Of a DNA stretch of 10,441 nucleotides, positions 7,180 to 7,643 are shown piece by piece. The stretch comes from a virus (taxonomy: Duplodnaviria; Heunggongvirae; Uroviricota; Caudoviricetes). The stretch lies in the IMG/VR virus record IMGVR_UViG_2681813269_000009. The stretch is one strand, 5' to 3'. The position numbers and the translations under genes were made by a program. Every line of letters begins with the position of its first letter. Positions within the stretch are counted from its first letter, which is position 1. Below the pieces are notes generated by a model. The model was not told where the DNA came from, did no database searches, and saw only the letters and a list, made by a program, of their open reading frames with translations.

Positions 7180-7316
7180 TATTCATTCTTCCAGATTCCT
7201 TCCGGCAGAGCCTTATACTGAAATATACCTGGCTCAGGATATTGTTGAAAATATTTTATGTTTGTCAAAAATAAAAGTTCTGTTAAGTATTGATTGAGTG
7301 TTTGTTATACGGTCTA

Positions 7317-7643
7317 ATGGTTTTTTCAGCATTAAATATTTATCATTCATATGGTGTGGGTAGAGTGAATATTGATGAGGCGTCGGGGTGTTTCATCCTT
7401 AGGCAGCGTATTGATATAGTCAATGCAGCACGAGCAAAGGCCTTCAGCCGTTTGACAGTTTTGTTCTGTACTCCTGATCGTCTTTCGGGAAGAGACGTTA
7501 TTATTCTGAATAGTGATGCTATACAGAGGGTTTGCGATGAGTTCATGGTTGCTAATTCAGAATTATTTGCTCTTGTTCAGGAGTACAACAGAATAGCCAG
7601 GACCTGTGGTATGGATGAACTTCGGATTACTCATCTGGGGTAG
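7317..7643 (+). CDS. Hypothetical protein (108 aa from the first ATG), cargo ORF downstream of the tRNA island
   Basis: Only sizeable ORF in the AT-rich segment after the tRNAs. No convincing SD for ATG 7317 or for the TTG at 7290 or internal GTGs. No family recognised. Confidence 0.3.
   Translation: MVFSALNIYHSYGVGRVNIDEASGCFILRQRIDIVNAARAKAFSRLTVLFCTPDRLSGRDVIILNSDAIQRVCDEFMVANSELFALVQEYNRIARTCGMDELRITHLG

Follow-up and report, generated by a model that had tools for sequence, protein, structure and literature searches.

A conserved, mostly unannotated gene of the PHROG 2873/4827 family in the Shiga toxin cargo slot of a lambdoid Escherichia coli prophage

We analyzed a 10,441-nucleotide (nt) stretch of viral DNA (IMG/VR record IMGVR_UViG_2681813269_000009, Caudoviricetes), called the window throughout, which is the late-regulatory region of a lambdoid Escherichia coli prophage. 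Directly downstream of a phage tRNA island, at the position where Shiga toxin (Stx) phages carry stxAB, the window holds an open reading frame (ORF) that had been noticed from the sequence but left without a family. Comparative sequence evidence indicates that positions 7365 to 7643 are a genuine protein-coding gene with a 92-residue product. The slot ORF therefore appears to be an uncharacterized real gene, an ordinary phage accessory gene that is neither a toxin nor a remnant. It does not found a new family, having already been catalogued as PHROG 2873/4827, with some alleles annotated as "hypothetical protein"; it is a new, mostly unannotated member of a known uncharacterized family, and no new kind of system is suggested. 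We demonstrate its coding capacity, family membership, conserved position, and predicted fold, and weigh what the protein might do. The gene and the sequence leading into it are arranged as follows:

7180 to 7289, plus strand: AT-rich spacer separating tRNA-Arg from the conserved gene module (G+C fraction 0.34 to 0.40)
7290 to 7364, plus strand: in-frame upstream extension with TTG 7290 and ATG 7317, probably 5' leader and not coding
7353 to 7361, plus strand: weak Shine-Dalgarno (SD)-like stretch GGTGTGGGT (duplex energy against the 16S 3' end, -4.5 kcal/mol)
7365 to 7643, plus strand: 92-codon gene with GTG start and TAG stop (phrog_2873, E = 5.6e-58 over residues 1 to 92)

Comparative evidence for a protein-coding gene

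The initial annotation had described an AT-rich slot directly downstream of the tRNAs that carries a single weakly supported ORF, either a novel moron or a remnant. The ORF exists, at 7290 to 7643 on the plus strand, and encodes 117 amino acids (aa) if read from TTG 7290 or 108 aa if read from ATG 7317. Its setting was also described correctly, in that three tRNAs end at 7179 and the G+C fraction is 0.34 to 0.42 over 7200 to 7700, versus 0.51 to 0.57 in the flanking upstream phage genes. The judgment that it was weakly supported did not survive comparison with its relatives.

Three diverged E. coli alleles, those of the window and of loci L003 and L005 in our comparison set, share 68 to 72% nucleotide identity and align gap-free over 92 codons, with the GTG (window 7365) and the stop position common to all three. 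The ratio of nonsynonymous to synonymous substitution rates (dN/dS) in the ORF frame was 0.26 in all three allele pairs, with a significant synonymous excess (Fisher p = 1e-6 to 3e-6) and twice as many differences at codon position 3 as at positions 1 and 2. The ORF frame was free of stops in the three alleles, and the five other frames all contained them. Ratios in the two other sense frames were near 1; one antisense frame also had a low ratio, yet it contains stops, and its low ratio arises because it shares its wobble phase with the ORF frame. The window-type allele was intact in 80 of the 80 IMG/VR prophage copies examined, where 6 of the 10 polymorphic sites fell at codon position 3. Because the frame is conserved, dN/dS is 0.26, and all examined prophage copies are intact, we conclude that the ORF is a real gene. 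Loss of the frame in related prophages had been proposed as the observation that would speak against such a gene; the frame proved to be conserved.

The opposite explanation is that a chance open frame or a decaying remnant lies in non-coding spacer DNA or in an RNA element. The AT-rich region with its weak ribosome-binding site would suit that explanation, as would the rearrangement of the surrounding prophage region by an insertion sequence (IS) element and the blank left by the Prokaryotic Genome Annotation Pipeline (PGAP) in all window-type and L003-type rows among the matches listed. It conflicts with purifying selection at this level (dN/dS 0.26, p ~ 1e-6), with the zero indels and preserved stop over 276 nt at ~30% divergence, and with same-length homologues in seven genera at 20 to 40% identity. 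A confident structure prediction, the lack of any Rfam match within 7180 to 7680, and the 80 intact copies also argue against it. We regard a non-coding or remnant origin as very improbable and close to refuted.

Two minus-strand candidates in the same stretch were rejected. An antisense ORF at 7343 to 7546 (67 aa) had no family match, and neither did the minus-strand coding sequence (CDS) annotated in the deposited phage genome mEp460_ev081; the minus frames all carry stops in the three alleles. The deposited annotation of mEp460_ev081 omits the gene and instead places a 38-aa ORF on the minus strand of the leader.

Start codon

We place the start, with good confidence from the allele comparisons, at GTG 7365, which would give 92 aa. 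The PGAP CDS in the L005 allele starts at the equivalent GTG, and in the L003 allele an in-frame TAA lies six codons before it. Homology between the window and L003 begins ~80 nt before the GTG, and within the extension the L003/L006 allele differs by frame-breaking gaps of 2, 2, and 3 nt; against L005 there is no homology upstream of ~7333. The spacer at 7180 to 7289 showed no conservation in either the L003 or the L005 allele. The N-termini of distant homologues (MSEINFEA...) align with VNIDEA... at the GTG.

The initial annotation found no good ribosome-binding site at any candidate start. This was accurate for TTG 7290 (-0.4 kcal/mol) and ATG 7317 (-2.5 kcal/mol) and overlooked the in-frame GTG 7365, which all alleles share and whose SD pairing (-4.5 kcal/mol, GGTGTGGGT) is better than that of the other two candidates. 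The remark on a poor site remains fair, since the SD of the window allele is only modest. Pairing is stronger in the sister allele L005 (AGGAG, -6.9 kcal/mol) and in the Citrobacter, Serratia, and Morganella genes (GAAGGG/AAAGGA, -5.1 to -5.4 kcal/mol). An ordinary GTG start with a weak SD fits these data, so the leaderless or otherwise exotic initiation that had been entertained is not needed.

A 108- or 117-residue form, made from ATG 7317 or TTG 7290 by leaderless or unusual initiation, has some points in its favor. The frame of the window allele is open from 7290, the 108-position phrog_2873 model matches residues 10 to 117, gene callers report 108- to 118-aa products in many assemblies, and the open extension is kept in the rare L003-type variants P0014 and P0015. 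We nevertheless judge the longer form improbable: the L003/L006 gaps and in-frame stop interrupt it, the L005 allele is unrelated upstream of ~7333, distant homologues begin at the GTG position, and SD pairing is essentially nil at 7290 and 7317. The extension is also hydrophobic, resembles low-complexity sequence, and is not conserved in the rest of the family.

Family membership and predicted fold

The initial annotation recognized no family. In its 117-aa form the protein matches phrog_2873 over the full length of the model (E = 3.8e-70, residues 10 to 117 to model positions 1 to 108 of 108), and the 92-aa form matches at E = 5.6e-58, which makes it a member of PHROG 2873. The gene falls in the same length class as this family (~92 to 110 aa); the model, at 108 positions, takes in the 16-residue extension that is probably untranslated. 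A weaker match is to phrog_4827, and both families are labeled function unknown. When diverse relatives were tested, 20 of 20 matched phrog_2873 and 17 of 20 matched phrog_4827. Because the family has no assigned function, membership is uninformative on mechanism.

Other family resources were indeed empty. NCBIfam and PADLOC gave no match for the ORF protein, no Pfam family reached E ≤ 0.01 for any of the 20 members, and the best Pfam hit of the ORF itself, RHIM at 12.8 bits, was below the cut-off of 20. PDB sequence profiles gave nothing below E = 0.1, the best being GapR/UPF0335 (E = 0.12 to 0.43) and Rop (0.79). A literature search on WP_001017777 and phrog_2873 found nothing.

The family is small. 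When 1.84 billion representative proteins were searched exhaustively with HMMER, only 20 representatives emerged, and a profile search of 5.8 billion clusters returned 40, all named "hypothetical." By name, the sources are E. coli, Shigella, Citrobacter, Salmonella, Serratia, Morganella, and Xenorhabdus. Full-length members are all 91 to 110 aa and share the invariant or near-invariant residues Cys9, Leu12, Arg23, Asn64, Glu66, Val71, Asn75, and Ala78. A possible paralogue next to rem (L001 4999 to 5142, and the same region of K-12 Qin; 31 to 33% identity over 48 aa) was rejected, the tblastn match being judged spurious (E ~ 1e-3 in a tiny database).

Structure prediction had been proposed in the initial annotation. 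AlphaFold2 runs with 6 and with 20 sequences gave the same model, a helix at residues 3 to 33/35, a conserved loop FCTPDRLSGRDVIILN, and a second helix at 50 to 81, with mean predicted local distance difference test (pLDDT) scores of 84.6 and 87.6 and predicted template modeling (pTM) scores of 0.71 and 0.73, respectively. The connecting loop carries the motif TPDR.SG. Maximum 19-residue hydropathy was below 1.4 in every member, and hence no membrane span is expected. The protein is thus predicted to be a soluble, cytoplasmic, antiparallel two-helix hairpin.

Structure searches with the model returned nothing beyond generic helical hairpins of the antiparallel type, among them periplasmic adaptor hairpins, prefoldin, TraM, and designed bundles, and none had a significant score. 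The TraM anti-activator (2q0o) likewise pairs two long helices of comparable length in antiparallel fashion (TM-score against the query, 0.68 to 0.74), and prefoldin beta (2zdi_B) has the same hairpin shape (0.70); GapR and Rop are weak profile matches (E = 0.12 to 0.8). On the predicted model, likeness to small helical-hairpin regulators holds at the level of the generic fold only.

Alleles in E. coli genomes and the annotation gap

Among 5,426 complete E. coli genomes, 1,314 had the 354-bp ORF (1,179 at identities of at least 99%), and ~1,185 had the window-type allele. Two less frequent alleles were the L003 type (80 genomes, mostly Shiga toxin-producing strains of E. coli [STEC] other than O157) and the L005 type (51 genomes). 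The L005 type has the AGGAG SD and is annotated by PGAP as a 92-aa hypothetical protein (WP_001017777.1). Loci L001 (8111 to 8461) and L018 (5001 to 5354) are examples in which the gene is unannotated. The gene has likely been skipped because of its GTG start, weak ribosome-binding site, AT-rich composition, and lack of a curated family. In the non-O157 STEC that carry the L003-type allele, the gene directly follows a gene for a 241-aa AraC-family (HTH_18) regulator (L003 3186 to 3911, L006 5255 to 5980).

Genomic contexts of the family

In 8 of 11 independent contexts, the gene lay co-oriented between Q and the holin/endolysin genes, and the Q proteins of those contexts belonged to three Pfam families (PF03589, PF06530, and PF06323). 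A tRNA gene occurred within ~600 nt upstream in four of the 11 (the window, Serratia L013, Morganella L016, and the plasmid copy L008), lay farther away in L006, L011, and L005, and was lacking in the remaining contexts; the phage tRNAs upstream of the gene differ in identity between contexts. The exceptions to the late-operon position were:

Exception 1: enterotoxigenic E. coli (ETEC) plasmids, with a tRNA-plus-gene fragment near a PapB-type fimbrial operon
Exception 2: a contig with the gene after a type IV pilus operon
Exception 3: a Xenorhabdus locus in which the gene adjoins transposase and tail genes

Because these three contexts lie outside a late operon, the protein is not strictly tied to late phage functions. 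The ETEC plasmid-like contigs (L008 to L010) encode a diverged member, P0036 (91 aa, 33 to 34% identical). On pig ETEC plasmids P0036 has a tRNA-Thr ~600 nt upstream and adjoins a PapB/usher/chaperone fimbrial operon, and P0036-type members were found on 27 PLSDB plasmids. This plasmid locus resembles a piece captured from a phage late region.

Comparison of the same slot in related prophages, which the initial annotation had suggested, showed the gene to be present in some and absent from others, with the frame kept in the three alleles compared and in the 80 IMG/VR copies. The segment 7180 to 7830 matched 1,715 genomes, only 1,183 of them at a coverage of at least 80%. Many related prophages have the downstream DUF3927 gene without it, and in K-12 the late slots of Qin and DLP12 are occupied by cspB/cspF and nmpC, with no copy of the gene.

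The frequent position just upstream of a holin gene would be explained if the protein were a cytoplasmic regulator of lysis timing or of the late operon that modulates holin or endolysin action. Holin genes directly follow the gene, or nearly so, in Morganella, Serratia, the JGI contig L103, and the E. coli L005 allele, and in Citrobacter and Salmonella they are close by. Several kilobases of unrelated cargo, however, lie between the gene and the lysis genes in the window and in most E. coli copies; at least four different holin families accompany it, the plasmid copies have no lysis genes nearby, and the protein has no membrane segment. A dedicated role in lysis is accordingly quite unlikely in our view.

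Probable late transcription and a proposed mode of action

Upstream of the tRNAs, the window follows the order of a lambdoid late-regulatory region:

1789 to 2114, plus strand: hok/sok module (sok by Rfam; Hok read from the translation)
Following the hok/sok module, plus strand: DUF968 gene, then RusA gene (DUF968 annotated in related prophages; RusA named by position)
4128 to 4949, plus strand: Q antiterminator gene (PF03589, E = 6.2e-55)
4955 to 5055, plus strand: putative late promoter PR' and tR', from a reading of the sequence (terminator-like hairpin 5030 to 5049 plus T run)
5522 to 6580, plus strand: N6/N4 DNA methylase gene
6621 to 7179, plus strand: phage tRNA island with tRNA(CAT), Arg-TCG, a partly masked degenerate duplicate, and Arg-TCT (ARAGORN, Rfam)

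Read directly after Q, the sequence runs TTGATT, 16 nt, TGgTAAATT, cgtcat, and AACGATGGG. Together with the strong intrinsic terminator at 5030 to 5049, the putative promoter stretch from 4955 to 4997 closely resembles lambda PR' with its promoter-proximal pause element and tR', and transcription of 4955 to 5055 should presumably yield a short RNA from PR' to tR', comparable to the 6S/StxS-type RNAs known from lambdoid and Stx phages. Two intrinsic terminator-like sites lie on the plus strand between Q and the gene (5030 to 5049 and 5358 to 5375). The gene is thus co-oriented downstream of Q, a PR'-like sequence, and two terminators, which is a late-operon location. A 65-aa ORF between the two terminators (5174 to 5371) gives a weak match to a TrmB-like winged helix (E = 0.0026); the related prophages L005, L006, and L018 have an annotated 65-aa "hypothetical protein" at the corresponding position, ahead of the methylase.

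The tRNA(CAT) of the island is called Met by ARAGORN and tRNA-Ile by RefSeq. The island itself is a tandem duplication with a period of ~306 to 309 nt (direct repeats D3 and D4); positions 6835 to 6982 are N-masked, and ARAGORN does not call the degenerate second copy of Arg-TCG. AGA, AGG, ATA, and CGA, the codons read by the upstream tRNA-Ile(CAT), Arg-TCT, and Arg-TCG, make up 9 of the 92 codons of the gene (9.8%), versus 1.4 to 3.6% in Q, the methylase, RusA, and DUF968.

On this layout, transcription would come mainly from PR' (~4955 to 4990) after Q-aided read-through of tR' (5030 to 5049) and of the second terminator (5358 to 5375), so that the product would be a late-phase protein, timed like Stx, and the rare AGA, AGG, ATA, and CGA codons would be served by the co-transcribed upstream tRNAs. 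Such Q-dependent late transcription seems reasonably likely from the sequence. The predicted hairpin protein would work in stoichiometric amounts, either self-associating or binding a protein of the host or the phage, and would not be an enzyme, a toxin, or a membrane protein; this protein-binding mode of action is a tentative proposal. The gene itself would be dispensable cargo, outside the core lysis and morphogenesis genes.

The main rival reading is an autonomous moron, transcribed from its own promoter in the lysogen and affecting the physiology of the host, for instance as a small protein that modulates a transcription regulator. The AT-rich composition, unlike that of the neighbors, would suit a moron, as would the optional nature of the gene (DUF3927 alone in many related prophages, the K-12 Qin and DLP12 slots without it). 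Some members are also found away from late operons (near PapB-type fimbrial regulators on ETEC plasmids, and downstream of a pilus operon), the AraC-family gene directly precedes the gene in the L003 allele, and helical-hairpin anti-activators (TraM) are among the non-significant fold matches. A leader of ~80 nt is conserved together with the gene between the window and L003 alleles, and a weak sigma-70-like site, TTGAAA-16-AAAAAT, lies within the window at 7245 to 7272. That site matches at only 9 of 12 positions and is unconserved in the L005 allele, which leaves no convincing promoter; moreover, no terminator-like site was found between 7643 and 7679, ahead of DUF3927, the dominant context is co-oriented inside a late operon, and the fold matches are generic. 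We therefore consider an autonomous moron unlikely, with somewhat better prospects than a dedicated lysis regulator.

The favored reading as a whole, a GTG-started, 92-residue late-operon accessory protein of PHROG 2873/4827 that binds a partner, is in our assessment fairly probable. Several observations weigh against it. The PR' candidate matches at 8 of 12 positions, below the threshold of our scan, and its assignment comes from its resemblance to lambda PR'. An SD pairing of -4.5 kcal/mol is reached by ~25% of window positions. Neither the window-type allele (every row among the matches listed) nor the L003-type allele (among the matches listed) is annotated by PGAP. Predicted pI ranges from 4.8 to 9.9 across members and gives no consistent clue to a ligand. 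Three of the 11 contexts lie outside a late operon, and the gene occurs in just 1 of 50,697 deposited phage genomes, mEp460_ev081 (LR597641.1, L002). Because of this last count, the gene is seen mostly in resident, possibly defective, prophages.

Comparison with other cargo of the slot

In Stx phages of the 933W type, the late region runs from Q through PR'/tR', a DNA methylase, and Ile/Arg tRNAs to the stxAB cargo, followed by NanS-p and the lysis genes. The window has the same slot order and would follow the same transcription logic as Stx-converting phages, and its gene, like stxAB, is rich in rare codons read by the adjacent tRNAs. It differs in its product, which has no signal peptide and is a predicted cytoplasmic helical hairpin. 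The initial annotation was right that stx is absent. A Stx locus would show an ORF of ~319 aa with a PF00161-type RIP domain and next to it, downstream, one of ~89 aa with the SLT_beta fold, along with signal peptides. No RIP (StxA) or SLT_beta (StxB) domain was found among Pfam matches to the stop-to-stop segments listed for 7180 to 10441 (E ≤ 1 for the ORF and the antisense ORF, E ≤ 0.1 for the remaining segments), and the gene is therefore not a Shiga toxin gene. The sole frame above 132 aa in 7180 to 10441 is the IS transposase, which leaves no unexplained frame that could hold StxA, and no N-masked stretch in that interval has room for a hidden stx.

The initial annotation held that this ORF was the only one in the slot. 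Downstream of the gene, the slot also carries the following:

7679 to 7810, plus strand: DUF3927/TciB-like gene, 43 aa (PF13064, E = 1.7e-27; phrog_1470, E = 7.8e-13)
8005 to 8194: STnc100 (RF02076) match, 123.6 bits, Rfam
~8404 to 9511: IS3-family element, with the rve transposase at 8416 to 9234 on the minus strand
9474 to 9662: STnc100 (RF02076) match, 71.2 bits, Rfam
9688 to 10023, minus strand: IraM paralogue, 111 aa (NF007393, E = 4.7e-48)
Window end, plus strand: start of a DUF1737 (NanS-p-type) gene

The DUF3927/TciB-like gene, which PGAP annotates in related genomes, recalls the TciA/TciB module (TerB-like plus DUF3927) that occupies the same slot in phage JLK-2012 and other prophages. 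In the window the gene is followed by the DUF3927/TciB-like gene, and in Citrobacter by a TerB-like gene and then DUF3927. JLK-2012 has tciA-tciB and no member of the family, and in the L005, Serratia, and Morganella contexts the gene occurs without DUF3927. Since each is found without the other, the two are neighbors and not an obligatory pair.

Like the lambdoid morons (lambda bor and lom; K-12 cspB/cspF and nmpC), the gene is optional, distinct in composition, and placed between late-region modules. The G+C fraction is 0.34 to 0.44 here, versus 0.49 to 0.53 in Q, the methylase, RusA, and DUF968. The gene thus shows two of three hallmarks of a moron in the Juhala/Hendrix sense, distinct composition and presence/absence polymorphism. 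For the third, an own promoter and terminator that would let the gene be expressed while the prophage is repressed, the window offers only the 9-of-12 site at 7245 to 7272 and no terminator at 7643 to 7679. Unlike most morons, the gene recurs at the same place in prophages of several genera. The earlier idea of a moron-like cargo gene is broadly right, the gene being optional, AT-rich, and located in the stx slot; the label "novel" does not hold, the family being catalogued already.

Small RNAs (sRNAs) form a further class of cargo. An 80-nt repeat (7835 to 7914 = 7964 to 8043) implies a third, partly N-masked copy of STnc100, an element that a 2026 preprint (10.64898/2026.05.13.724894) relates to the prophage-encoded PasD sRNAs of enteropathogenic E. 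coli (EPEC). Given the STnc100 matches and this relation, the stx slot also carries sRNA cargo. An ArcA-regulated sRNA-17 is reported in PMC7719688 from a mEp460-like prophage of E. coli RS218. As an identity for the unannotated stretch it was rejected, since the sequence given in the primer table of that paper is absent from the window and from the 18 loci compared.

A 126-nt direct repeat, 99% identical (8044 to 8169 = 9512 to 9637) and part of the STnc100-type element, brackets the IS3-family element, and a 36-nt piece of the start of the DUF1737 gene is duplicated beside it (8368 to 8403 = 10406 to 10441). These repeats suggest an IS-linked duplication or rearrangement of the slot. The IraM paralogue, an anti-adaptor by family, is a candidate lysogenic-conversion gene that may act on RpoS stability.

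Implications for the family and its hosts

A gene under clear purifying selection is unannotated in ~1,260 of 5,426 complete RefSeq E. coli genomes, about a quarter, among them EPEC E2348/69, enteroaggregative E. coli 55989, and O104:H4 outbreak strains. By virtue of its stx-slot position, the gene product should be made in quantity on prophage induction. One broader idea is that the family is a conserved late-phase effector working with the tRNA island, for example a coiled-coil inhibitor of host defenses that target tRNA or translation, or a general regulator of lysis timing. Such an effector would explain why the gene stands behind tRNA sets and ahead of holins that are unrelated between contexts, across several genera and three Q families; we give this idea a slim chance. 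Because its position, behind phage tRNAs and ahead of lysis genes, is conserved across several genera, the gene is a reasonable candidate for functional study.

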